Of a stretch of DNA of 64,000 bases, positions 30,623-42,726 are shown piece after piece. The stretch spans positions 352,001 to 416,000 of the forward strand of contig CAWDVR010000002.1 in assembly GCA_963805975.1 (NCBI GenBank), in the 5' to 3' direction. The notes beneath the pieces were generated by a model. It did no database searches and was not told the origin of the DNA. It was given only the letters and a program-made list of their open reading frames with translations. Positions within the stretch are counted from its first letter, which is position 1. Each line of letters begins with the position of its first letter. This DNA is from an uncultured Acidobacteriota bacterium. GTDB lineage: Bacteria; Acidobacteriota; Thermoanaerobaculia; Multivoradales; SZUA-115. The position numbers and the translations under genes were made by a program.

Positions 30623-33015
30623 TCAGTAGCTGACCCTCAACTGGTACGTCGTCCGGGTCGACGAGTAGCGGAGCACACGCACGAAGACGTTGGTCGCCGC
30701 GCCGCCGGTGTTGGTCCAGGACGCCTGGTCCGCGGTGGTGCCGCCGGCAGTGGAGCTCGCCACCTGGGTCCCCGCCGCGTTGTAGATATAGAGGTCGTAG
30801 TCGACCGACAGGCCGTTGAGCAGGCCGGTCACCGTCCGGCCCGCTGGCAGGCTCAGGCGGAAGTAGTCGTTCTGCTGTGAGACCGAGTCGTTCAGGAACG
30901 TCCCCGAGATCTGGTTGCAGGTGCCGGAGATGGCCTGCGGCGCAGCGGTGCTGTCGTTGGGCTCCACGTCCGAGATGGCGTTGCAGGTCGGGCCGGTCGC
31001 ATAGCTGCCGACCAGCGTCAGGCCCGAGTACGCCGAGTACCCGTGGAGCATCACGTGCCAGGTGCCCGCCGCCGGGCTGGGGAAGGTGCAGGTCTCGTTG
31101 TTGCCGCCCAGGTACGGCCGGCAGTCGTACGTGCCGGTGGTGGGCGCCGAGCCGAAGCGCACGTAGAGGTCCGCGTCGCCGGTGCCGCCCGAGGTCTGGA
31201 ACTGCAGGTTGGACGCGCCCGCGGGCACGGTCATGGTCCAGAACTGCTGGCTGCCGGTCGCCCCGGAGATGCCGGACACCGGGACGCCGTTCGCGAGCAC
31301 GTTGCCGGTGCAGGCCGAGGTCGTGGCCTGCGCCTGGGCCGAGTTGCCGGAGCTGCAGGTGCCGTTCGAGGCCGTCACCACGTAGTAGTAGGTCGTGTTG
31401 CAGGACAGGCCGGTGTTGGAGAACGAGGTGGTGGCGGAGGTGCCCACCGAGCTGTAGGGCCCGCCGCTGGTCGCGGAGCGCAGGACGGTGTACGAGGTGG
31501 CGCCGGCAGAGGCGCTCCAGGAGAGGTTGATCTGACTCTGCGACGCGGCGCTGGCGGAGACCCCGGTGGGCGCCGCCGGCGGCGTGCAGCCGCCACTGCC
31601 GTTGATGCCGCTGACGGTGGTGGCGCCGGTGCTCCCGGCGTCGAGCCAGTTGGAGAGGCGGGTGCTGTTGGTGCCGCCGCCGGTCCAGGAGACGCTGAAG
31701 CGCCCGTAGTAGTCCGAGAGATTGTTGCCGGTGGCGCCGCAGGAGGACGGCCCGCCGTGGAGCTGGCCGACGAAGCGGCCGGCGTCGTTGTAGAGCGGCG
31801 AGCCGGACGAGCCCGGCTCGGTCACGCCCGGGATGGTGTACGGGCCGGGAGGATCGGTGGCCCAGCGGGCCCACAGGTGGGTGCCGTCACCCGGTGAGGT
31901 GGTGCCGCTGTAGCTCGTGCTCTGCATGACGGTGGTGACGTAGGTGATGCGCTTCTCGTCGGTCGACGGGTGGTGGATCGAGGCGCAAGGCACCGTGGCG
32001 CTGCACGAGTGGTTGCCGGTCGAGCGGTCCCAGCCGGCCCAGTGATGGTTGTAGGCGGTGACCGGCGGGTCGTCCAGCTCCACGAGAGTCACGTCGGAGG
32101 GAGAGTGCGCGGCGCGGAAGAACGAGCCGGTGTGGAACTGAGAGAGCGAGCCGTCGCCGGCCTGCCCGCTCTGGGCGCTGCCGGGCGCCCGGCAGAAGGA
32201 GTTCTGATAGTTCCAGTAGACCACCAGCGAGGCCGCGTTGCCCGAGTTGATCGAGCAATGGTTGGCGGTGATGAAGTACATCTTGCGGTCGCCGGCCGTG
32301 TCGTTGACGCAGCGATCCGGTGCAGAACGTCGAGCCGCCGGTCGAGATCACGCCCACGGCCCGCATCTCGTCGCGCCAGGTATCGCCGGCAGGCAGGCAC
32401 TCGACGTCCAGATTGCAGCTCCCGGACTTTTCGTAGGCGCCGGCCGGGGTGGTACCGAAGCCGCGGTAGCCCTGGTTGATCCAGCCGAGCTCGAGCTCCA
32501 CCGCCCGCGCCTCGCGCTTCGGCACGGTGAGCTCCACGATCAGGTCGTCGGTGGTGACGACCGGCGTCCACAGCTCGCCGTGCTTCTCGTTGTCCGCCGA
32601 CGGTGAAGGGCCGCGAGACCTGGGTGCCGTCCGTCGCGTAGAGCAGCAGGCGTGCCCCTTCCGGCAACCGGAAGCGGGTGAAGCCGAGGTTCAGGGACGT
32701 GGCGCCCTCGCGGCCCAGGACGCGCAGCCGCCAGAGCATCTGGCCGTTGCCGAGGTCTTCCCAGGTGCCGTCGAGCGCGGGGGTGATCGACACCCGCTCC
32801 GGCACGGCGAAGCGCGGCGGCAGCCCGATCCGGTCCCGCTCCAGATCCTCTTCCCCGAGCCTCGCCAGATCCATCTGGGTGGCGACGAAGGAACCCAACT
32901 GGTTCACGTCGCGCAGCGCGAAGCCGGCGGCCGTGGGTACGGCGGCGTCCGAGGCGGCATGGGCCACGCCGCCGAAGGCGAGCAACATTAGCCAAGCGAG
33001 CTTACGGCTCATCAT
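30623..33015 (-). pseudogene. Lysyl endopeptidase (Achromobacter protease I)-like serine protease with FN3 and two PPC domains, interrupted by two +1 frameshifts
   Basis: Signal/pro-region, SGSCNLDVEC, CTGSL|VND, TANHC, SDVTL, GVTEPGSSGSP; frames join if single bases near 32601 and 32309 are removed. Confidence 0.85.
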
Positions 33016-33172: not shown

Positions 33173-36127
33173 ATGAACCCCGAGGGCCACGCTCCGGGCA
33201 CCACCCGTGGCGACCGCACCGACTTCGGCGACTGGCTGCGCGGCGTGCCGAAGGCGTCGCCTGGCGGCCTCGCGCCCGGCCCCGGCATGGCCTGGGGCCG
33301 CTATCGGCTCGAGGGCCTGCTGGGCGAGGGCGGCATGGGCCGGGTTTTCGCCGCCTTCGACCCCCGTCTCGAGCGCCGCGTGGCCCTGAAGCTGCTGCGC
33401 GGCGACGACCCGGTGCTCGCCCTCCGCTTCCTGGCCGAGGCACGAGCCCAGGCGCGGGTCGAGCACGAGCACGTATGCCGGGTGTACGAGGTCGGCGAGG
33501 TCGAGGGGCACCCGTACATCGCCATGCAGCTCGTCGAGGGGCCGACGCTGCGCGAGGTGCCCCCTGGCATGTCGCTCACCGAGCGCACCGAGGTGATGCG
33601 GCGGGTGGCGGAGGCGGTCCACGCCGCGCACCGCACGGGCCTGATCCACCGCGACGTCAAGCCGGGCAACATCCTGCTCGAGGCCACCGAGGCCGGCGCC
33701 TGGCGGCCCTACGTGGCGGATTTCGGCATCGCCCGCGCGGTGGACGCGGCGGGCCTCACGCGGCCCGGCGCGGTGGTCGGAACCCTCGAGTACATGGCGC
33801 CGGAGCAGGCTTTCGCCGAGGGGACGGAGCCGGACCGCCGAGTGGACGTCTACGGCCTCGGGGCGACGCTCTACGAGCTGCTCTGCGGCCAGCCGCCGGT
33901 CTCCGGCGCGAGCGAGGGCGAGGTGCTGATGAGGCTCCTGACCGGCGAGCCGGAGCGGCTGTCGAAACGCCGGCCGGGCCTGCCCGTCGATCTCGAGACC
34001 ATCGTCATGAAGTGCCTGGAGCGGGATCCGAAGCGGCGCTACGAGTCGGCCCGGGCTCTCGCCGAGGACCTCGCCCGCTTCCTCGACGGCGAGCCCATCC
34101 TCGCCCGCCCCACCTCCTGGACCTACCGCCTGGCCAAGCGCGTGCAGAAGAACCGCGGTATCGCCGCCCTGCTCGCCGCCGCGGCCCTGGGGATCCTCGT
34201 TTCGGCGGGGCTCTGGCTGCACACGCGGTGGCAGGCAGGCAGGCAGGCGGCGCTCGCCCAGCGCTTCGGCGAAGAGGTGCAGGCGATCGAGAGCCAGTTG
34301 AAAATCGCCCAGCTCCTGCCGCTCCACGACACGGCCCCGGAGCGGGCCGCGGTGCGGCGGCGCATGGCAGCCCTCGAAGAGCAGGCGAAGCACGGCGGCA
34401 GGCCGGCGCTCGGGCCGGGCTCCTATGCCCTGGGCCGCGGTCACTTGGCGCTCGCCGAGCCGGAAGCCGCCCGCGCCGCGCTCGAACGCGCCCAGGACGC
34501 GGGCTACCGCACGCCGGACGTTTCCTACGCGCTCGGGCTGGCGCTCGGCGGCCTGTACCAGAAGGCGCTCGAGCGCGCGGACTCGCTGGCGGACCGGCGG
34601 CAGCGGGATCTCGAGCGGGCACGGGCCGAGCGCGGTCTGCGCGACCCGGCCCTCGCCTACCTGCGGGCCGCGGGCAGCGCCCGCCACGACCCGGCCTACG
34701 TCGAGGGGCTGATCGCACTCTACGACCGCCGCTTCGACGAGGCCCTGGCCAAGGCGCGCCAGGCGTTTGCCGCCGCGCCGGCGCTCTACGAGGCGCGGCA
34801 GCTCGAAGGGGAGGTGTTGATGGCCGAGGGCACGCGGCTCGCCGAACGGGGCGCCTACGACGCGGCCCTCGCGCGCTACCACGAGGCGGAGGATGCCTTC
34901 GCCGGCGCGCTCGCGATCGGCCGCAGCGACGCCATGCTGCTGCGTAGCGAGTGCCTGCGGCGCCTCAAGGTGCTGGAGATCGACATCGTGCGCGGCGGCA
35001 GGGCCGAAGGCAGCTTCGCCGCCACGCGCCAGGCTTGCGAGACCGCGCTCGCCGCCAACTCCGAGCTCGGCCCTGCCTACGACCTGCTCTCCTCCGCCCA
35101 CTGGCACTATGGCGACTTCTTGATGGACCGCGGCGGAGATCCGCGGGCGATCCTCACGCGCGCCGAGGAGCTGGCCGCCAAGGCCCTGGAGCTGTCCCCC
35201 GCCAACGCCGCAGCGGCCTCGCACGCCGGCACCGCGGCGGTGCTCGCCGCCGAGCACGAGACCGACGCCGGGCTCGATCCGCGCGCCTCCCTGGAGCGCG
35301 CCATCGCGAGCTTCGACCGTGCCCTGGCCCTCGACCCCGACCTCGTCCTGGCCTACAACGAGAAGGGCCTCGCGCACTTCGCCCGCGGGCGCTACGAGAT
35401 GCTGGCCGGGCTCGACGCGCGCGCCAGCTTCGCGCGCGCCGTGGAGGCGTACGAAGCGGCCATCGCGCGCGACCCGGAGTACGCCAACGCCATCCACAAC
35501 CTCGGCCTGGCGCTCGACAACGCCGCCGACTACGAAGCCGCCACCGGCAACGACCCGAAGCCTTTTCGGCAGCGGTCGATCGAGAGCTATCGCCGCGCCA
35601 TCGTGCTCAACCCCCACCGCGCGCTCTTCCTCTCCAACCTGGGAGGCGGCTACGTCAAGCTCGGCGACTGGGAGATGTCGCAGGGGGTTGTACCGGACGC
35701 CGCCCTGGCCGGCGCGATCGAGGCGCTGGATGCGGCGCGCGCCGCCGACCCCGGCCTGGCGATCGCGACCACCAACCTCTCGAACGCCTACCTGCTGCGG
35801 GCGGAGCACCAGCGCAAGACCGGCGGCGACCCGCGGGCGGCGATCGAGCGCTGCATCGCCTTGAACGCCGAGGTGCTCGCCCTCCAACCGGGCAACGCCC
35901 TCGCCCTCGGCACCCAGGGGCAGGCTTGGGTGTCGCGTGCCCACTACGAGCTCGACTCGGGGCTCGACGCGTCCCGCTCCATCGCGCGCGCCGAGCAGGC
36001 GCTGGCCGAGACCCTGCGTGCCAATCCGCTGTTCGAAAACGCCCTCGCGCCGACGCGGGCCGATCTCGCGGCCTTGCGGGCGCGGCAGGCGGAGCGCTCC
36101 CGGCCGGCCTCCCGTTCTACGAGATAG
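33173..36127 (+). CDS. Hanks-type Ser/Thr kinase with TM and TPR region
   Basis: GEGGMG, VALK, HRDVKPGN, DFG, YMAPEQ; TM; TPR repeats. Confidence 0.93.
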   Translation: MNPEGHAPGTTRGDRTDFGDWLRGVPKASPGGLAPGPGMAWGRYRLEGLLGEGGMGRVFAAFDPRLERRVALKLLRGDDPVLALRFLAEARAQARVEHEHVCRVYEVGEVEGHPYIAMQLVEGPTLREVPPGMSLTERTEVMRRVAEAVHAAHRTGLIHRDVKPGNILLEATEAGAWRPYVADFGIARAVDAAGLTRPGAVVGTLEYMAPEQAFAEGTEPDRRVDVYGLGATLYELLCGQPPVSGASEGEVLMRLLTGEPERLSKRRPGLPVDLETIVMKCLERDPKRRYESARALAEDLARFLDGEPILARPTSWTYRLAKRVQKNRGIAALLAAAALGILVSAGLWLHTRWQAGRQAALAQRFGEEVQAIESQLKIAQLLPLHDTAPERAAVRRRMAALEEQAKHGGRPALGPGSYALGRGHLALAEPEAARAALERAQDAGYRTPDVSYALGLALGGLYQKALERADSLADRRQRDLERARAERGLRDPALAYLRAAGSARHDPAYVEGLIALYDRRFDEALAKARQAFAAAPALYEARQLEGEVLMAEGTRLAERGAYDAALARYHEAEDAFAGALAIGRSDAMLLRSECLRRLKVLEIDIVRGGRAEGSFAATRQACETALAANSELGPAYDLLSSAHWHYGDFLMDRGGDPRAILTRAEELAAKALELSPANAAAASHAGTAAVLAAEHETDAGLDPRASLERAIASFDRALALDPDLVLAYNEKGLAHFARGRYEMLAGLDARASFARAVEAYEAAIARDPEYANAIHNLGLALDNAADYEAATGNDPKPFRQRSIESYRRAIVLNPHRALFLSNLGGGYVKLGDWEMSQGVVPDAALAGAIEALDAARAADPGLAIATTNLSNAYLLRAEHQRKTGGDPRAAIERCIALNAEVLALQPGNALALGTQGQAWVSRAHYELDSGLDASRSIARAEQALAETLRANPLFENALAPTRADLAALRARQAERSRPASRSTR

Positions 36128-37310
36128 CCTGGAGCACGCCGAGGACGCGCGAGCGTGCCAGCTCCGCGGCCGGCACGGGCTTCGAGAAGTAGAAGCCCTG
36201 GGCGTAGTCGATCCCCAGCTCGCGGAGCATCTGCGCGTCCTCGGCCGTCTCCACCGCTTCCATGATGGTGGCGGTGGCGGCGCGCTGTGCCATCTCGGCC
36301 GTCGAGCGGACGATGATCTGCCGCAGCGGGTCGGCAGCCAGGTTGCGGCTGAAGGTGCCGGAGATCTTCAGGAACTCGGGGCGCAGGTCCTTGAACAGGT
36401 TGAGGTTGGAGGAGCCTTCGCCGTAGTCGTCGAGGGCGACGCGGAAGCCCCGCTCGCGCACCGCGCCGAGGGTGGCCGCGAAGGCGCGCGGGTTGACGAT
36501 GGTCTGCTGCTCGGTGAGCTCGAGCACGATGCAGGAGGTGTCGAGCGCCGAGGCGGCCACCGCCTCGAGCAGGCGCGAGGTGAACTCCGGGTTGGTCATC
36601 GACCGCGGCTGCACGTTGACGAACGCCGTGACCTCGCCACCCAGCTCCTCGACCTCGCGGAGCGCGGAACGGATGCAGATCATGTCGGCCTCGAAGAGCA
36701 GCTCTTTGCGCGCCGCGTAGCCGAGGAAGATCGACGGGTCGCCCAGGAGCGTGGTGTGCGGGCCGCGCGCCAGGCACTCGACGCCGAAGAACGAGTACGG
36801 TGCGTCGCCCTGCTCGAGCTTGATCACCGGTTGCAGCAGCGAGCGCACGGTGCCCGCGGCCAGGAACTCCTCGAGCAGCTCGACCTGCTCCACCGGACCA
36901 TCCGGTTCGCTCGCCGGATCGGCTCCGGCTTCGTCACGGGCGAGGGCGTCCCGCCGCGCGAGCAGCAGGCGCCGGAGCTCGGTCAGTCCCGCCGGTTTCT
37001 CCAGCACGCGAGCGGCACCGAGGACCCCGGCCAGCGCCCGCACCTCGTTGTCGACGTGGCCGGAAAGGATGAACACCATGGTGTCCGGGAAATGCGTGGC
37101 CACGAAGCGCACCAGCCTCATTCCCTCGAGCCCGCCGAGGCGGGAGAGCGAGAGATCGGTCACCAGAACGTCGAACGGGAACGCGGCCAGCAGCACCTCC
37201 GCGGCCTCGATCTCGCGACAGGTGGTGAGATGGATGCCCGGCGCGCGAAGACACAGCGCCAGCGTCTCCAGCACCAGTGGCTCGTCGTCAAGCAGCAGGG
37301 CTCGCAGCAC
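36117..37310 (-). CDS. Response regulator receiver + EAL c-di-GMP phosphodiesterase
   Basis: REC (LLLDDE, VTD, EKP); EAL-domain motifs ECL, FVN, ELTE, DDYGEG, EAVE, QGFYF. Confidence 0.9.
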   Translation of the reverse strand: MLRALLLDDEPLVLETLALCLRAPGIHLTTCREIEAAEVLLAAFPFDVLVTDLSLSRLGGLEGMRLVRFVATHFPDTMVFILSGHVDNEVRALAGVLGAARVLEKPAGLTELRRLLLARRDALARDEAGADPASEPDGPVEQVELLEEFLAAGTVRSLLQPVIKLEQGDAPYSFFGVECLARGPHTTLLGDPSIFLGYAARKELLFEADMICIRSALREVEELGGEVTAFVNVQPRSMTNPEFTSRLLEAVAASALDTSCIVLELTEQQTIVNPRAFAATLGAVRERGFRVALDDYGEGSSNLNLFKDLRPEFLKISGTFSRNLAADPLRQIIVRSTAEMAQRAATATIMEAVETAEDAQMLRELGIDYAQGFYFSKPVPAAELARSRVLGVLQAIS

Positions 37311-37578
37311 GATGGGCGCAGTATAGCGAACGCGGTGTCGAGGCTGGAATTGTCGTGCGATTGAGCTAGCAAAAGCGTTTGCAAAGGGCGCTACCAGGAG
37401 TTAAAAAAGCCAGTTCCTCGCTGTCGGATTGAAAGCTGCCTTACGTCTTGACGCACGTACGACCACTCCTGTAGCTTGCCGGCCTTGGTCGCTCCGGCGC
37501 AGGTTTCTGCGCCGGTCTTCTGGCAACAATCCATTTTTTGAGAGGCGGCAGCAGAGCCTGCCGGCCGAGGGAGGCAGC

Positions 37579-37794
37579 ATGAAGGTTGGAAGTGTGAGCG
37601 GCATCACGGAGTTCCACGCGCGGTTGTTCTCGACGACGGAGCAGGACGGTCTGTTTGCCGCCCTGCGCAAGCTCGCCCAGCTCGAGAGCCCGCGGCGGTT
37701 CTCCGAGCTCGAGGAGCCCATGGACGGCTGGTACGCCTGGTACGACGACCGCGAAGAGAGCATGGCTCTCGCCCTTGCCCCCCAGCCGGTCTGA
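37579..37794 (+). CDS. 71-aa peptide, candidate ComX-like precursor (W51, W54)
   Basis: GAGGGAGG RBS before ATG 37579, GC3-rich codons, DGWYAWYDD; upstream of the prenyltransferase. Confidence 0.6.
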   Translation: MKVGSVSGITEFHARLFSTTEQDGLFAALRKLAQLESPRRFSELEEPMDGWYAWYDDREESMALALAPQPV

Positions 37795-37952
37795 GAAGCT
37801 CCGGCACGCCGCGGCAACAAACTCCCCCGTCAGACGTACTCCAGTTTCGCCACCGTAGTTTCGCCACCGTGCGCCGGTGCCTTCATGGCCGCGCACGGCG
37901 GCCCCATGTCCAGAGGCCGCGTTTCCTCTGCCGGTAAGACGCCGGCGCGGCA

Positions 37953-37981
37953 TGGACCGCGCACCATCCTTCTGCTATAAC
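37953..37981 (+). promoter_or_regulatory. Sigma70-type promoter for the prenyltransferase-kinase pair
   Basis: TGGACC-17bp-TATAAC with an extended -10 TGn. Confidence 0.5.
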
Positions 37982-38017
37982 GGAGATCAATCCGCGTCCC
38001 GGCCTCACCTTGAGAGC

Positions 38018-38971
38018 ATGCATCTCGCGCTGATCCAACAGCGGCTGCTTACCCTGCCGGAGGTCGCCCAGTGGGCGGACCTTCGCGCTCTCCTCGAGCG
38101 GCCGGCCCGGCAGCGGGCAACCTCCGTGTGGGAGTACCCGGCTCTCGCCTGCCAGGCGGTGGGCGGCGCGCCGGAGGCCGCCCTCCCCGCGGTGACCGCC
38201 GTGTACACCTCGCTGCTCGCCATCCATCTCGTGGACGACCTGCTCGACGACGATCCGCGCGGCCTCTATCGCCGGCTGGGCGCCGGCACCGCCGCCAACC
38301 TCGCGCTGGCGCTCCAGGCCGCCGGCCATCGCGAGCTGGATCGGGTGCCCGCCACGGCCGAGACGCGTGCCCTCCTGCACGGCAGCCTGGCGCGCATGTC
38401 TTTCGCGACCGCCTACGGCCAGAGCCTGGACAGCCACCAGGTCACGAACGAAGAGGAGTACTGGCGGGTGGTCGGCGCCAAGACGCCGCCGCTTTTCGGC
38501 GCGGCTTTTTTTCTCGGCGCGGTGCTCGGCGGCGCGGGCGCGGACCTGGCGGAGAGCCTCGAGCAGGTGGGCGGCGTCCTGGGTCGGCTGGTCCAGGTCA
38601 GCGACGACCTGGGCGATGCGATGCAGGAGCCGGCCGGCGCCGACTGGCAGCGCCCCGGTAACAATCTCGCCCTGCTCTACGCCCTGGTGAGCGACCATGA
38701 CGAGCGCGAGGCTTTCCGCCGTGCGGCAGGTGCCGCCCACGAGCCCGCCTGCCTCTCGGAGGCGCAGCAGATCCTGCTCCGCTCTGGCGCGGTCAGCTAC
38801 TGCGCCTACCGGCTGCTCGAGCTGGCCCATCAGGCGAGGAGCCTCCTCTCGCGCCTCTCACTGGCCGATCCGCTGCCTCTCTCGAGGCTCGTCGACGAGC
38901 ATCTGCGGCCGCTGTCCCAGCTTCTGCGTACCGTCGGCGCCGAGCTACCGGAACCCGTGGTCGCGAGCTAG
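38018..38971 (+). CDS. Class I isoprenoid-synthase-fold (polyprenyl synthetase family) protein, ComQ-like
   Basis: FARM VDDLLD, GQSLD, KT, SARM SDDLGD; lacks the N-terminal GKxxR and post-FARM RRG motifs. Confidence 0.82.
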   Translation: MHLALIQQRLLTLPEVAQWADLRALLERPARQRATSVWEYPALACQAVGGAPEAALPAVTAVYTSLLAIHLVDDLLDDDPRGLYRRLGAGTAANLALALQAAGHRELDRVPATAETRALLHGSLARMSFATAYGQSLDSHQVTNEEEYWRVVGAKTPPLFGAAFFLGAVLGGAGADLAESLEQVGGVLGRLVQVSDDLGDAMQEPAGADWQRPGNNLALLYALVSDHDEREAFRRAAGAAHEPACLSEAQQILLRSGAVSYCAYRLLELAHQARSLLSRLSLADPLPLSRLVDEHLRPLSQLLRTVGAELPEPVVAS

Positions 38972-38977
38972 CCGGCC

Positions 38978-41803
38978 ATGGTGAGCGAGCATCCGTTTGC
39001 GCTGCGCCGGGCCGATCTGATCTGGCTCGTCGCCTCGGTGCTCGCCCTCGTCCCCTGCCTCTACTACCCCTATCGCTCGGTCGTCCCCCATCTCGGCTTC
39101 ACGCTGGCTCACGACTGGTCGGTGCGCGGCACGGAGCCCTGCCCGGCCGGGGAGAGCTGCCTCCAGGTGGGAGACCGCGTGCTCTCGATCGGCAGCGTGA
39201 GCCTCGAGCAGTTCTCGGCGAGCCGCACCCTGAGCCCGTTCGGCGCCTTCGAGAAGCCGGGCACGGTCGAGGTCCGGGTGCTGCGCGACGGCCGCGAGCA
39301 GGACCTCGAGCTCAAGACCCACCCCAGCCTGGCCGGCCTGCAGCGCATCGACGCCCTGATCGTGCTCTTCCCGTTCGTCTTCTGGCTGATGGGCACGGTG
39401 GTGATCATCTTCCTGCGGCCGAGGGACGAGCGCTGGCTGGTGCTGATGCTCTTCCACTACGTGACGGCGGTGTGGTTCGCCGCCGGGCTCGCGTCGTCCC
39501 GCCAGCTCGGCGGGGCCGGCCTCGTCTTCCACCTCTTCGTCTGGTTCTTTCCGCCGCTCGCCGTCCACCTGCACCTGATCCTGCCCGCGCCCCTGGTCTG
39601 GAGCCGCCGCTGGCGGGTGCTGGCGCCGCTCTACGCGGCGTCCGTGGTCTTCGCCGCGCTCGACCTGCTGCAGCTCCTGGGCGAGCTGCGCTACCTCTAC
39701 GTGCTGTGGTTCCTGGCCGGGCTGACGCTCGCCTTCGGCCTGCTCGTGGCACGCCTCTTCGTGCCCGCCTCGCCGGCGGCGCGCACCGCCACCCGCATCA
39801 TGCTCTACGGCGTGGCCGTCGGCTTCGGCCCGGTGCTCGTGTTCCTGATCCCCGCGACCCTGGCGCCGGACCTCCTGGCGGCGCGGCCGGACCTGGCCTC
39901 GGTCTGGCCTCTGTCGCTCGCCATCTCGCTGGTCGCGATCCCCATCCTGCCGCTGTCGTACTTCTACGCCATCTACAAGCACCATCTCGGCGCGCTCGAG
40001 TTCCGGGCCAACCGTCTGCTCGGTGTCTACAGCTTCTTCTCGCTCTACATCGCCTTCTACGTGGTGGCCCTGTTCCTGGCCCTCCGGAACTGGGGAGCGG
40101 TCGACAGCCGCGCGCTGGGCGCGACCCTCGCCATCTCGCTGGTCTTCGTGTCCGTGGCGCCCTTCCTGCGCAACCGCTTCCAGGCCCTGGTGGACCGCCA
40201 CGTGTTCGGCATCCGTCACAGCCCGGAGGAGGTGGTGCGGCTGGTGGCCTCGAAGATCCCCACCGCGTTCAACCGCGCGGTCCTGGCGCAGGTGGTGGTC
40301 GAGGAGATTCTGCCCACGCTCCTCATTCGGCAGTCGGCCCTCCATCTGTTCACCGACGACGACACCGAGACCCTCTACGAGCAGGGGCTGGCGGAGGAGA
40401 CGAGACGACCTACGCCGGAGGAGCTGCGGCTGCTGCTCCACCGGGCGGGCCGCTACCTGCCGCCGGCGCAGGCCGTGGCCTCCCAGCCCTGGGCGCGGCT
40501 CGCGATCCCACTCGGCATCCAGGCCGAGGCGATCGGCGTCTGGCTCTTCGGGCGGCGCGACCCGGACGACCACTACCCGGCGGCCGACATCCAGCTCCTC
40601 TCGACCGTCGCCAACCAGATCGCGCCCATGCTCGAAAACATCCGGCTCTACGAGCGGGCGCAGCAGGAGATCGCCCAGCGGCGAGCCGCCGAGGAGGAGA
40701 TCCGGGCGAGCCGCGAGCGCTACCGCAACCTCTTCGAGGCCACGCTCGAGGGCATCGCCATCGTCAAGAACGGAGTCATCCTGGAGGTCAACCAGGCGCT
40801 GCTCGGGATCTTCGGCTACGCCCCCTACGACCTCACCGGGCGGGCGCTCTCGACGCTGCTGGCGACCGACGAGGCGACCCTCACCGCCGAGCCCAGGGAG
40901 GGCACCGGGGAGAAGCGGGACGGCAGCTCGGTGACGCTCGAGATCGCGGCCCAGAAGTACGTCTTCCAGGGCGAGGACGTGACCGTGGTGGCGGTGCGCG
41001 ACATCGAGCGCCGCAAGCGCAACGAGGAAGAGAACCGCCACCTCCAGCGCCAGCTCCTCCACTCGCAGAAGATGGAGGCCATCGGCCGGCTGTCGGCGGG
41101 GGTCGCCCACGACTTCAACAACTGCCTGCTCGCCATCTTTGGCTTCAGCGATTTCCTGCTGGCGCGCGCCGGCAACGACGAGCTCCTGCTGCGCGGCCTC
41201 TCCGGCATCCGCGAGGCGGGCGAGAAGGCCGCGGCGCTCACCAAGCAGCTCCTGGTCTTCACCCGCCAGCAGCCCATGGAGCCGCAGGTGATGAGCTTGA
41301 ACGCCGTGGTCTCCGGCGTCGAGAAGATGGTGCGTGGCGTGCTGGGCGAGAAGGTGGACCTCGTCACCCGCCTGGCCCCGGACCTGCCCGACGTGCGCAT
41401 CGACCCGGTGCAGGTCGAGCAGGTGATCCTCAACCTGGCCGTCAACGCCCACGACGCCATGCCGCGCGGCGGCCGGCTGACCGTCGAGACCGAGCCGGTG
41501 GACCTGGCGGCCGGCACCACGCCCCACCCGGACCTCGCTCCCGGCCGCTACGCCCAGCTCACGGTTGCCGACACCGGAGAGGGGATGGACTTCGACATCC
41601 AGGGCCGGGTCTTCGAGCCTTTCTTCAGCACCAAGAAGCTGGGGGAGGGAACGGGCCTGGGGCTCTCGACCGCCTACGGCATCGTGCACCAGAGCGGCGG
41701 CCACATCACCGTGGCGAGCGCCCCGGGGCGGGGCGCCACGTTCACCATCTACCTGCCGGCGGCGGGCGGCGGGCTCATCCCAGCGCCAGCCGTGGCCCGG
41801 TGA
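38978..41803 (+). CDS. Membrane sensor histidine kinase: TM-PDZ-multiTM-GAF-PAS-HisKA-HATPase
   Basis: LQVGDRVLSI..VLRDG (PDZ-like), about 8-9 TM, HDFNN H-box, NLAVNA, DTGEG, FFSTK, GTGLGL; no receiver domain. Confidence 0.9.
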   Translation: MVSEHPFALRRADLIWLVASVLALVPCLYYPYRSVVPHLGFTLAHDWSVRGTEPCPAGESCLQVGDRVLSIGSVSLEQFSASRTLSPFGAFEKPGTVEVRVLRDGREQDLELKTHPSLAGLQRIDALIVLFPFVFWLMGTVVIIFLRPRDERWLVLMLFHYVTAVWFAAGLASSRQLGGAGLVFHLFVWFFPPLAVHLHLILPAPLVWSRRWRVLAPLYAASVVFAALDLLQLLGELRYLYVLWFLAGLTLAFGLLVARLFVPASPAARTATRIMLYGVAVGFGPVLVFLIPATLAPDLLAARPDLASVWPLSLAISLVAIPILPLSYFYAIYKHHLGALEFRANRLLGVYSFFSLYIAFYVVALFLALRNWGAVDSRALGATLAISLVFVSVAPFLRNRFQALVDRHVFGIRHSPEEVVRLVASKIPTAFNRAVLAQVVVEEILPTLLIRQSALHLFTDDDTETLYEQGLAEETRRPTPEELRLLLHRAGRYLPPAQAVASQPWARLAIPLGIQAEAIGVWLFGRRDPDDHYPAADIQLLSTVANQIAPMLENIRLYERAQQEIAQRRAAEEEIRASRERYRNLFEATLEGIAIVKNGVILEVNQALLGIFGYAPYDLTGRALSTLLATDEATLTAEPREGTGEKRDGSSVTLEIAAQKYVFQGEDVTVVAVRDIERRKRNEEENRHLQRQLLHSQKMEAIGRLSAGVAHDFNNCLLAIFGFSDFLLARAGNDELLLRGLSGIREAGEKAAALTKQLLVFTRQQPMEPQVMSLNAVVSGVEKMVRGVLGEKVDLVTRLAPDLPDVRIDPVQVEQVILNLAVNAHDAMPRGGRLTVETEPVDLAAGTTPHPDLAPGRYAQLTVADTGEGMDFDIQGRVFEPFFSTKKLGEGTGLGLSTAYGIVHQSGGHITVASAPGRGATFTIYLPAAGGGLIPAPAVAR

Positions 41804-42077
41804 TCCGCTCGCTCCGGCACTCGGGGCAGCGGCTCGGCGGGTGCAGGTGACGGGCCGCGCGCTCGCGAAACACGAAGCCGCACTCGGCGCACGCCGCGGG
41901 CTCGACCGTGAGCTTCCTGCCACTGCCCCGCGCGCTCTTCTCGAGGTGCCGCAGGTCCTCCGCCAGGAGCCCCACCGGCACCGCCAGCTCCCGCCGCAGC
42001 TCCTCGAACCCCCACAAGCCCATGGCGAGCATCTCGGCAATCTGCTGCCGGCGGGTGGAGGAGTCGGAGGTGGGCAT
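41775..42077 (-). CDS. HTH + Zn-ribbon predicted transcriptional regulator (COG3357-like)
   Basis: TRRQQI..L, DLRHLEKS, CAECGF..RCPECRSERI. Confidence 0.75.
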   Translation of the reverse strand: MPTSDSSTRRQQIAEMLAMGLWGFEELRRELAVPVGLLAEDLRHLEKSARGSGRKLTVEPAACAECGFVFRERAARHLHPPSRCPECRSERITGPRLALG

Positions 42078-42100
42078 GACGTGCAGCAGGAGAAGAGTGG

Positions 42101-42514
42101 CTAAACGCTTCCCCGTTCGACCACCCATTCCACAGGTTGGCGAGTGACCGAGGCGATGAGGTCGAAATCGCGGTCGTAGTGCAGGACGGTCAGGGCAGCC
42201 TGCTCACCGGCCGCCGCAATCAGCAGATCGTTGATCGGGACTCGGTGGTGGCCCGTCTTCGCGAGCTCCCGTTGGACCGAGAGTGCCCGCTCGAAGGTGC
42301 CCTCAGTCAAGGGGACCGACCTGTAGGCGAACTTCCGCCTCTGGCGGATGGCGTCGTAGTCGGCCAGGTTTCGGGCGCTGAAGAGAACCTCCAGGTCGAT
42401 CACCGCGCAGGTCGCCACCTGGCCGGTCTCGATCAGCGGTGCCAACCGCGCTTCGACCGCCGGAATCGTCATCCGCGCCAGGGCGCTCTTGTCCAGCAGG
42501 TACCTGGCGGTCAT
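42101..42514 (-). CDS. vapC: VapC-family PIN-domain toxin
   Basis: YLLDKSA, LEVLFSAR, NDLLIAA, LHYDRDFD. Confidence 0.88.
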   Translation of the reverse strand: MTARYLLDKSALARMTIPAVEARLAPLIETGQVATCAVIDLEVLFSARNLADYDAIRQRRKFAYRSVPLTEGTFERALSVQRELAKTGHHRVPINDLLIAAAGEQAALTVLHYDRDFDLIASVTRQPVEWVVERGSV

Positions 42515-42726
42515 CGCCGCCAGGCACCAGCCATCACCTCGGGGTCCGCGAGGTCCATGCCTCGCATCTCCTTGAGCGCTTCCACCTCGGCACGCCGGGC
42601 TTCCTGCCTCACCACCGCCAGGAAGGCCTCGTTGATCGTGTCTTTGATGCTTCCCGTGGTGAGGATTCGTTGAGCCTCGGCTAGCAGGTTCTCGTCGATC
42701 TCTACACTGGTCTTGCGAATGGCCAT
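42511..42726 (-). CDS. vapB: VapB-family antitoxin
   Basis: KTSVEIDENLLAEAQRIL.T..KDTINEA; ATGA overlap with the toxin. Confidence 0.85.
   Translation of the reverse strand: MAIRKTSVEIDENLLAEAQRILTTGSIKDTINEAFLAVVRQEARRAEVEALKEMRGMDLADPEVMAGAWRR

Follow-up and report, generated by a model that had tools for sequence, protein, structure and literature searches.

The ComQXPA system consists of four adjacent, co-oriented genes in the order Q-X-P-A, and a 2014 census placed it in Firmicutes only (PMC4008528). Its ComX precursor is 52-73 residues long, belongs to family PF05952 and carries a Trp 5-10 residues from the C-terminus (PMC4008528). The receptor ComP is described as a first transmembrane helix (TM1), a PDZ domain at residues 30-108 and ten transmembrane (TM) helices up to residue 387 (PMC9620489). 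These papers, and PMC10853753 and PMC13290415 below, are cited for the parts of their text that were available. Presented here is a cassette of peptide, enzyme and receptor kinase genes, flanked by a divergent REC-EAL gene, in 64,000 nucleotides of DNA from an uncultured Acidobacteriota bacterium (contig CAWDVR010000002.1, positions 352,001 to 416,000; this whole stretch is called the window). The cassette appears to operate on the ComQXPA plan without belonging to that system.

The closest characterised enzymes, compared by description, are StheQ, PalQ and ChrPC. StheQ from Sphaerobacter thermophilus is a synthase-fold peptide Trp prenyltransferase outside Firmicutes, as the enzyme P0002 of the window may be; its precursor StheX, of 69 residues, likewise has an ordered N-terminal part and a Trp-bearing tail, and Chloroflexota hosts overlap (bioRxiv 10.64898/2026.08.29.745113, preprint). 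However, StheX lies downstream of StheQ and has adjacent Trp residues at -2/-3, and the DExxD of StheQ's FARM (first aspartate-rich motif) and the ND of its pseudo-second aspartate-rich motif (pseudo-SARM) are found in a sister family (locus L145), not in the WxxW family to which the window belongs. The main text of the preprint describes no receptor or output. The PalQ/PalX/PalP cluster of Paenibacillus alvei also combines a kinase, a leader-bearing precursor and a prenyltransferase, and the PalX leader improves PalQ turnover; but PalX is a Firmicutes peptide with an NHLP leader and a strictly C-terminal Trp (PMC10853753), whereas the WxxW peptides gave no match to NHLP models and have mostly internal Trp. 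The synthase-like P domain of ChrPC, described in a review, prenylates an internal Trp with C10-C20 donors, but it is fused to a cyclase domain, while P0002 is a single domain of 317 residues (PMC13290415). No earlier description of the WxxW family was found in the literature searched, although subscription papers, supplements and the ChrPC paper may list its sequences; PMC8895600, PMC12715784 and PMC13083261 do not describe it in their available parts.

The locus shares with ComQXPA a small Trp peptide, a PF00348-fold enzyme with the FARM DDxxD (210 of 210 relatives) and a receptor built of TM1, a PDZ-like loop and nine further TM helices followed by GAF, as judged from the published layout of ComP. 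Some family members also pair HisKA_3 with REC-LuxR, like ComP and ComA. It differs in the order X-Q-P with a divergent REC-EAL gene. The peptide P0001 fits ComX in its length of 71, but it has no PF05952 match and its last Trp is 17 residues from the end. The WxxW enzymes have Asp where the ComQ pseudo-SARM NDxxx has Asn, the window kinase has HisKA/HDFNN and PAS instead of HisKA_3 (PF07730), and REC-EAL takes the place of the REC-LuxR gene present at 14 other loci. Two or three peptides per locus are common, and the hosts, including diderms, are outside Firmicutes.

We give a probability of about 0.62 to the following reading as a whole. The enzyme would bind the peptide leader and attach geranyl or farnesyl to one tryptophan in the WxxW core (W54 or W51). 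The lipopeptide would then be trimmed at both ends, cross the inner membrane and bind the PDZ/ten-helix domain of the kinase. The kinase would autophosphorylate at H711 and pass the phosphate to D52 of the REC-EAL protein, which would change its hydrolysis of cyclic di-GMP (c-di-GMP). An analogous ComQXPA-like system had been proposed in a first-pass annotation of the window. The peptide-enzyme-receptor part of that proposal is strongly supported by conservation, active site and receptor layout, but the enzyme is not of ComQ type and the c-di-GMP link is lineage-specific. The features of the locus, in window coordinates, are:

36117..37310, minus strand: REC-EAL response regulator P0004, 397 residues (PF00072, E 1e-13; PF00563, E 6e-47)
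37311..37578, no strand: divergent intergenic region, 58% G+C, containing GAGGGAGG
37567-37574, plus strand: ribosome-binding site GAGGGAGG, preceding the peptide gene
37579..37794, plus strand: precursor peptide X, P0001, 71 residues (family alignment)
37863..37902, plus strand: G+C-rich hairpin between the peptide and enzyme genes (folding z-scores)
38018..38971, plus strand: trans-isoprenyl-synthase-fold enzyme Q, P0002, 317 residues (PF00348, E 2e-13; AlphaFold model)
38978..41803, plus strand: receptor kinase P, P0003, 941 residues (Pfam domains, hydropathy, structure model)

The coordinates bear out the gene order peptide, enzyme, kinase of the first-pass annotation, the gap of 6 bp between enzyme stop and kinase start, and the REC-EAL gene transcribed divergently across an AT-rich region (268 bp; 58% G+C against 70% for the window). 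Searches of this intergenic region for a sigma-70 consensus and for Rfam families gave nothing, as did a terminator scan. The closest named relative among the matches listed is L001, a Thermoanaerobaculia metagenome-assembled genome, with identities of 70% for the enzyme, 79% for the kinase and 53% for the peptide, in agreement with an origin in Acidobacteriota. The window and L001 share a TG-extended -10-like motif ahead of the enzyme gene; it occurs in only 6 of 94 loci and was dropped.

The precursor peptide family

Relatives of the enzyme were collected from named genomes (Thermoanaerobaculia, Entotheonella, Anaerolineae), at least 76 metagenome loci and genome samples. The analysis covers 110 of 121 loci, after removal of duplicates (L100-104, L111), the window's own entries (L018, L105), ordinary synthases (L017, L019) and the locus of genome G546 (L118). 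Since related loci are not independent, counts are given also after clustering. The family has a patchy distribution. At E 1e-40 it occurs in 15 of the 301 genomes sampled from the class (12 strong and 3 weak matches, G546 among the latter). A single-protein search found enzyme relatives in 5 of 401 genomes of the phylum, and 6 of 401 genomes from the phylum of G402 also have them. A plasmid collection gave no match to the enzyme.

By its alignment, the 71-residue reading frame (ORF) is a member of an unnamed family with a helical leader and a WxxW core. P0001 has a helical leader at about residues 6-38, a variable linker, the core and a tail of 17 residues. The first-pass annotation had described this ORF, its strong ribosome-binding site and a DGWYAWYDD segment, and all three are confirmed; W51 and W54 (codons at 37729 and 37738) lie inside the segment. 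F12 and W54 are invariant in the family alignment, with L29 and W51 conserved in at least 90%. As the invariant Trp, W54 appears the likelier modification site.

The iterated P0001 profile gave 113 matches in the six frames of 669 kb of loci, every one on the enzyme's strand. With one exception, at +4421, they fall either in the 0.5 kb ahead of the enzyme gene or 0.3-0.9 kb past its end (-488 to -5 and +1289 to +1869, counted from the enzyme start), so the ORF is more than a chance occurrence. In its own genome the window locus is the only match. An upstream peptide (within 700 bp) is present in 73 of the 80 loci with enough flank, or in 67 of 74 and 45 of 51 enzyme clusters at 90% and 70% identity, and 20 loci have two or three peptides. 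Among the seven misses, L113 has its peptide downstream, and L117, L119 and L121 have a diverged WxxW ORF recognised by eye.

A Trp beyond residue 25 is present in all 110 distinct peptides, and WxxW in 97 of them. A leader-only profile with W masked, built to avoid circularity, recovered 99 distinct peptides; a tail Trp is present in 99 of 99 and WxxW in 87, while among 7,705 background ORF tails the values are 43% and 3%. The first-pass annotation had in advance made its reading depend on a Trp peptide at homologous loci, and this is what the upstream counts and the leader matches give. Against 1.84 billion sequences the profile yielded 609 representatives at 50% identity. Of the 149 that were listed in addition to P0001, 147 have a Trp beyond residue 25 and 146 have WxxW, the latter with 131 different core hexamers.

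In 9 of the 110 family peptides Trp is the last residue, and the tails after the WxxW core reach about 25 residues. None of 76 peptides matched PF05952 (ComX) at E 0.5, and against leader models there was no NHLP match and one Nif11 match at E 0.11. A genome-level PF05952 search gave no match, as also in control genomes, and recognition of the peptide in the ESM atlas was below threshold. The spacers after the peptide gene fold with z below -2 in 58 of 76 relatives, against 3 of 76 coding controls. The window hairpin is modest (z -2.3 for 37860-37960; z -0.8 for 37795-37920) and is possibly a stabiliser of the peptide mRNA. Precursors with repeated cores were also seen (P0254, P0227, L047): there are four WxxW units in P0254, where parts of the leader are repeated as well, and two units in P0227.

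It is important to consider whether the small protein could instead be a regulatory or structural subunit, with an enzyme that makes a small terpenoid or prenylates free indole and a receptor that senses the small molecule. In its favour, neither Asp-rich motif is damaged, ordinary synthases are the top structural matches, some enzymes and receptors are paired with no peptide, and Ord1 farnesylates free tryptophan with the same fold (PMC13290415). However, a conserved leader, a hypervariable core, an invariant Trp and several paralogues at one locus are not what a subunit would show, and in sister cassettes this receptor type is accompanied by small ORFs that are unrelated and yet also end near a Trp. 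This explanation is considered very unlikely.

The enzyme and its sister families

The isoprenoid-synthase fold named in the first-pass annotation is confirmed by PF00348 and by the AlphaFold model of P0002 (pLDDT 91), which has a trans-isoprenyl diphosphate synthase fold with best TM-scores of about 0.75-0.80. Searches of the PDB by sequence and fold gave only ordinary synthases and Ord1 (9v4j, E 3e-13), which ranked no higher than the synthases; no chain of StheQ, ComQ or PalQ came up. P0002 keeps the FARM (D73-D77), the GQxxD at 134-138, K155 and the SARM residues Q193, D196, D197 and D200. Residues D73, D74, D77, G134, Q135, K155, Q193, D196, D197 and D200 are invariant in 210 of 210 distinct sequences.

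The acceptor side is different. Across the 210 sequences GKxxR is replaced by SxWxxP, the His before the FARM by S/A/G and the RRG after it by PxG; W38 is found in 202, P80 in 201 and S/A/G at position 68 in 207. GKxxR, this His and the RR after the FARM are what we take to be the binding set for isopentenyl diphosphate (IPP). GKxxR and RRG are retained by the genome's three other synthases and by 12 from five further genomes. With the donor site intact and the IPP-acceptor residues replaced across the family, the enzyme is probably able to ionise a prenyl diphosphate and would use an acceptor other than IPP. The same combination is seen in the peptide Trp prenyltransferases ComQ, StheQ, PalQ and the P domain of ChrPC, and the enzyme also has a dedicated adjacent precursor with a conserved Trp.

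An ordinary chain-elongating synthase in an incidental neighbourhood would account for the canonical-looking DDxxD found twice and for the many homologues automatically named 'geranylgeranyl pyrophosphate synthase'. The features of chain elongation (GKxxR, His before and RRG after the FARM) are missing across the 210 sequences, however. The family forms one clade apart from ordinary synthases with support 99 (a quick tree search, row X_L142 left out), the neighbours are fixed, and the genome already has three ordinary synthases. This possibility is extremely remote.

The second motif reads Q-x-x-D-D-x-x-D in 210 of 210 sequences, with Asp at the pseudo-SARM Asn position of ComQ and StheQ, and the claim of a ComQ-type enzyme is not upheld; the motif is PalQ-like instead. 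PalQ is a proven Trp prenyltransferase with Q197, D200 and D204, the spacing of Q193, D196 and D200 here (PMC10853753). According to a 2026 review, the characterised enzymes of this trans-isoprenyl-synthase-like type all target Trp (PMC13290415). We consider it likely that the peptide is prenylated by the enzyme, and reasonably probable, by analogy, that the chemistry takes place at Trp C3 as in ComQ, PalQ and StheQ. That the enzyme, whose two metal motifs are intact, modifies both WxxW indoles, by double prenylation or by a staple of one isoprenoid, and so gives Gram-negative soil bacteria a lipopeptide signal with a portable receptor, is unlikely. If true, this would be a new class of cell-to-cell lipopeptide with novel chemistry and hundreds of dialects, and the receptor would drive kinases, hybrids or c-di-GMP hydrolysis.

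In the distant enzymes of L142-L144 (genomes G562 and G498), a diverged leader-WxxW peptide overlaps the enzyme start and no receptor is nearby; L144 adjoins genes for a GMC oxidoreductase, LanM and an ABC transporter.

A weak thirteenth sensor match, in genome G620, turned out to be a sister cassette (L145:5394-10681, G620:C3). It consists of a REC-LuxR gene, an Rce1/CAAX-like protease, a peptide of 79 residues ending in DWGRRG, an enzyme and a PDZ-TM-GAF-HisKA_3 kinase; the protease is a candidate for the processing step. The enzyme has the ComQ/StheQ-type motifs DEWQD and QVWND, while the sensor is homologous to that of the WxxW family (E 2e-33). This sister family has at least 120 enzyme relatives, some from named Anaerolineae, with QxxND in 119 of 120. 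It aligns with the WxxW enzyme family over 269 columns at a probability of 99%, and both have the W-x-x-P replacement of GKxxRP. The Chloroflexota genome G401 has four different divergent prenyl enzymes (L163, L169, L170, L167), three of them paired with a PDZ/TM-type receptor. A small Trp-tailed ORF adjoins at least three of the four enzymes and was seen with two of the three pairs. At L146:11440-13353 a weak Rce1-like gene lies just downstream of the receptor, and no peptide was found within 15 kb. As the sister cassettes pair a homologous sensor with a ComQ/StheQ-type enzyme, the WxxW family is, by its motifs, one branch of a wider set of peptide, prenyl enzyme and PDZ/TM receptor, some branches of which carry the ComQ/StheQ signature. 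Kinship with ComQXPA appears best supported, though indirectly, by these cassettes, the Bacillus side being compared by published layout and motifs.

The receptor kinase and its output

P0003 consists of TM1, a PDZ-like loop at about residues 34-122, nine further TM helices up to about residue 408, and the GAF, PAS, HisKA and HATPase regions. The first-pass annotation had counted 8-9 TM helices, which is revised to ten, as hydropathy gives 10 peaks and the model 10 membrane-length helical segments. The extracytoplasmic PDZ-like loop it had described is present and beta-rich, though the PDZ assignment is weak in each tool: Pfam PDZ_2 at E 0.003, under cut-off; Foldseek to the DegS/DegP PDZ at E 0.2-0.5; and atlas clusters with PDZ. 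The kinase core of the HDFNN type with GAF and PAS also stands; PAS and HATPase are found by Pfam, GAF and HisKA are under cut-off, and the HDFNN motif is at H711, CckA-like. The Pfam scan found no receiver domain in P0003. The sensor model had no PDB match at E 0.001, and the rows for G-protein-coupled receptors were rejected as generic helical-bundle noise. In another part of the same genome (G000:C5:659978-662815) there is a second, distant PDZ-TM-GAF-PAS histidine kinase (E 5e-12).

The sensor module lies beside the enzyme in 52 of the 60 loci having both flanks; among all loci it is downstream in 64 and divergently upstream in 18. The linkage of peptide, enzyme and sensor extends to dozens of Acidobacteria and Chloroflexi. 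Among 301 genomes of the class, one set of 12 holds both the strong enzyme matches (E < 1e-90) and the strong sensor matches (E < 1e-55), adjacent in each, and 18 of 24 well-supported splits of the enzyme tree recur in the sensor tree (49 loci). A check proposed in the first-pass annotation, that a small Trp ORF and a PDZ-multiTM kinase co-occur and co-vary, is borne out for co-occurrence (73/80 and 52/60) but not for co-variation beyond shared descent. Over 13 complete loci the mean identity is 36% for the peptide, 37% for the PDZ loop, 51% for the sensor, 57% for the enzyme, 69% for GAF, 73% for the kinase core and 75% for EAL. The comQ, comX and 5' comP genes are reported as the fast-diverging part of comQXPA (PMC4008528). 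The divergence pattern here resembles theirs but is only suggestive of specificity, because rapid evolution is common in membrane and extracellular domains and the peptide tracks EAL better. Peptide-receptor co-evolution was rejected as a candidate finding, being inseparable from shared descent. Taken together, it is likely that a prenylated peptide would be sensed by the adjacent receptor.

A signal between cells is slightly favoured. The lipopeptide might instead stay with its producer, in the inner membrane or periplasm, and report the supply of prenyl diphosphate or the state of the envelope. With the outer membrane that Acidobacteriota possess, the PDZ loop points into the periplasm, and no conserved exporter or protease lies beside the cassette. 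The diversity of the cores (609 clusters at 50% identity; 131 hexamers in 146), however, fits strain-specific signals, and the fast change of the PDZ loop and the two or three different peptides in 20 loci also speak against a producer-bound signal. Furthermore, ComQ and ComX in E. coli yield active ComX without a dedicated exporter (PMC4008528). We regard the producer-bound signal as unlikely, though the least unlikely of the alternatives.

P0004 has the residues D8/D9, D52, S83 and K105, which we take to be those of the receiver, and E178, N232, E264, D294, D295, K315, E351 and Q371, presumably the metal and catalytic residues of EAL. Both sets are retained across 27 distinct relatives where covered, bar one X position. 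Loop 6 reads D(Y/F)GEGSSNL instead of DFG(T/A)GYSS. P0004 is thus a predicted c-di-GMP phosphodiesterase with a phosphorylatable receiver, its level of activity being uncertain because of this atypical loop.

Of 67 loci, 28 (or 15 of 43 clusters) have a REC-EAL gene upstream; it is co-directional in 27, and only L001 and the window have it divergent. Orthologues of at least 59% identity occur in 7 of 301 genomes, all cassette-bearing; those in the six other genomes (59-68%) each lie beside the cassette. The sensor-GAF module is constant, while the domains that follow vary between loci. Most Thermoanaerobaculia have PAS-HisKA-HATPase-REC, and 20 of 23 complete HisKA-type kinases have their own receiver. 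The Anaerolineae-type loci have HisKA_3 kinases of about 755 residues and a REC-LuxR gene (the 14-locus cluster, which includes L145); in L013, L084 and L099 the HisKA_3 match is weak and falls below or close to the cut-off. L061 has a HisKA_2 output. At L062:7942-10743 and L063:5447-8203 the sensor is fused to GAF-HD-GYP with the motif HHExxDGxGYP, a possible one-component, peptide-gated c-di-GMP phosphodiesterase. The first-pass annotation had REC-EAL as the only adjacent receiver, with no ComA. This holds in the window but not family-wide, and the HisKA_3 with REC-LuxR or the fused HD of other members means that absence of ComA is not a family trait.

The REC-EAL gene could be only a neighbour or a transcriptional target, with the kinase signalling to a regulator encoded elsewhere. 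It is missing from 39 of 67 loci, most complete kinases have their own receiver, and the genome has 54 receiver-bearing frames. Yet the gene was kept beside the cassette through an inversion in the window and L001, where the kinase also lost its receiver, close orthologues occur only alongside the cassette, and HD-GYP fusions appear in other members. This alternative is improbable, about as much as modification of both indoles. The inversion and receiver loss shared by the window and L001 make direct transfer to REC-EAL plausible there, and for this genome such transfer from the kinase has a little better than an even chance. The predicted c-di-GMP link appears conserved in one lineage and recurs through HD-GYP but is not universal. 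The genome itself has 11 GG(D/E)EF frames.

Several other genes lie near the locus. At 33173-36127 (plus strand) a Ser/Thr kinase gene with TPR repeats, outside the set of conserved neighbours, overlaps the 3' end of the REC-EAL gene by 11 bp with its stop. At 41775-42726 (minus strand) a PF0610-like zinc-ribbon gene, of a presumably archaeal-type family, overlaps the kinase end, and a VapBC pair comes next. At 30623-33015 (minus strand) is the gene of a secreted lysyl-endopeptidase-like protease, its FN3/PPC-like tail assigned by eye; it appears split across two frames near 32281-32476, through a possible frameshift or assembly error.

Opposing evidence and significance

A number of observations weigh against the proposed reading. 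D196 occupies the position of the pseudo-SARM Asn, where Asp costs ComQ about 90% of its activity, and StheQ N215D loses 98% (bioRxiv 10.64898/2026.08.29.745113). The WxxW family must therefore place the indole differently. The Gln before the SARM was rejected as a marker for tryptophan, since ordinary synthases carry Gln there too. W54, 17 residues from the C-terminus, is outside the 5-10 of ComX (PMC4008528), and PalQ rejects C-terminal extensions (PMC10853753) while the window Trp is internal.

The association is also not complete. L115 and L116 have enzyme and receptor, but no peptide was found (15 kb were read for one of them), and L120 is an orphan enzyme. No sensor is near L009, L010 and L083, one receptor is an orphan, and the three distant enzymes have a WxxW peptide without a receptor. 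Conversely, PDZ-TM-GAF kinases exist without peptides, as at C5 of the same genome. Among the 13 loci peptide identity tracks EAL (rho 0.69) above the sensor (0.38), and no protease or exporter is conserved beside the cassette. For the output, 20 of the 23 complete related kinases are hybrids that carry a receiver of their own, and the 54 receiver-bearing frames are possible kinase partners. Five of the 12 cassette genomes have no REC-EAL orthologue, and two cassette-free genomes carry REC-EAL relatives of 45-49% identity.

Prenylated peptide pheromones have been characterised as signals only in Bacillus, and StheQ extends the enzyme to Chloroflexota. No described peptide signalling in Thermoanaerobaculia, Anaerolineae or Entotheonella was found in the literature searched. 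The cassette would place complete sets of signal, enzyme, receptor and output in the abundant, mostly uncultured Acidobacteriota (Thermoanaerobaculia) and in Anaerolineae, with peptide-enzyme pairs in Entotheonella. It also points to a way in which a peptide signal could reach c-di-GMP. The hundreds of natural peptide-enzyme-receptor sets could serve studies of specificity, and the predicted leader-guided prenyltransferase of an internal Trp may be useful for peptide lipidation.

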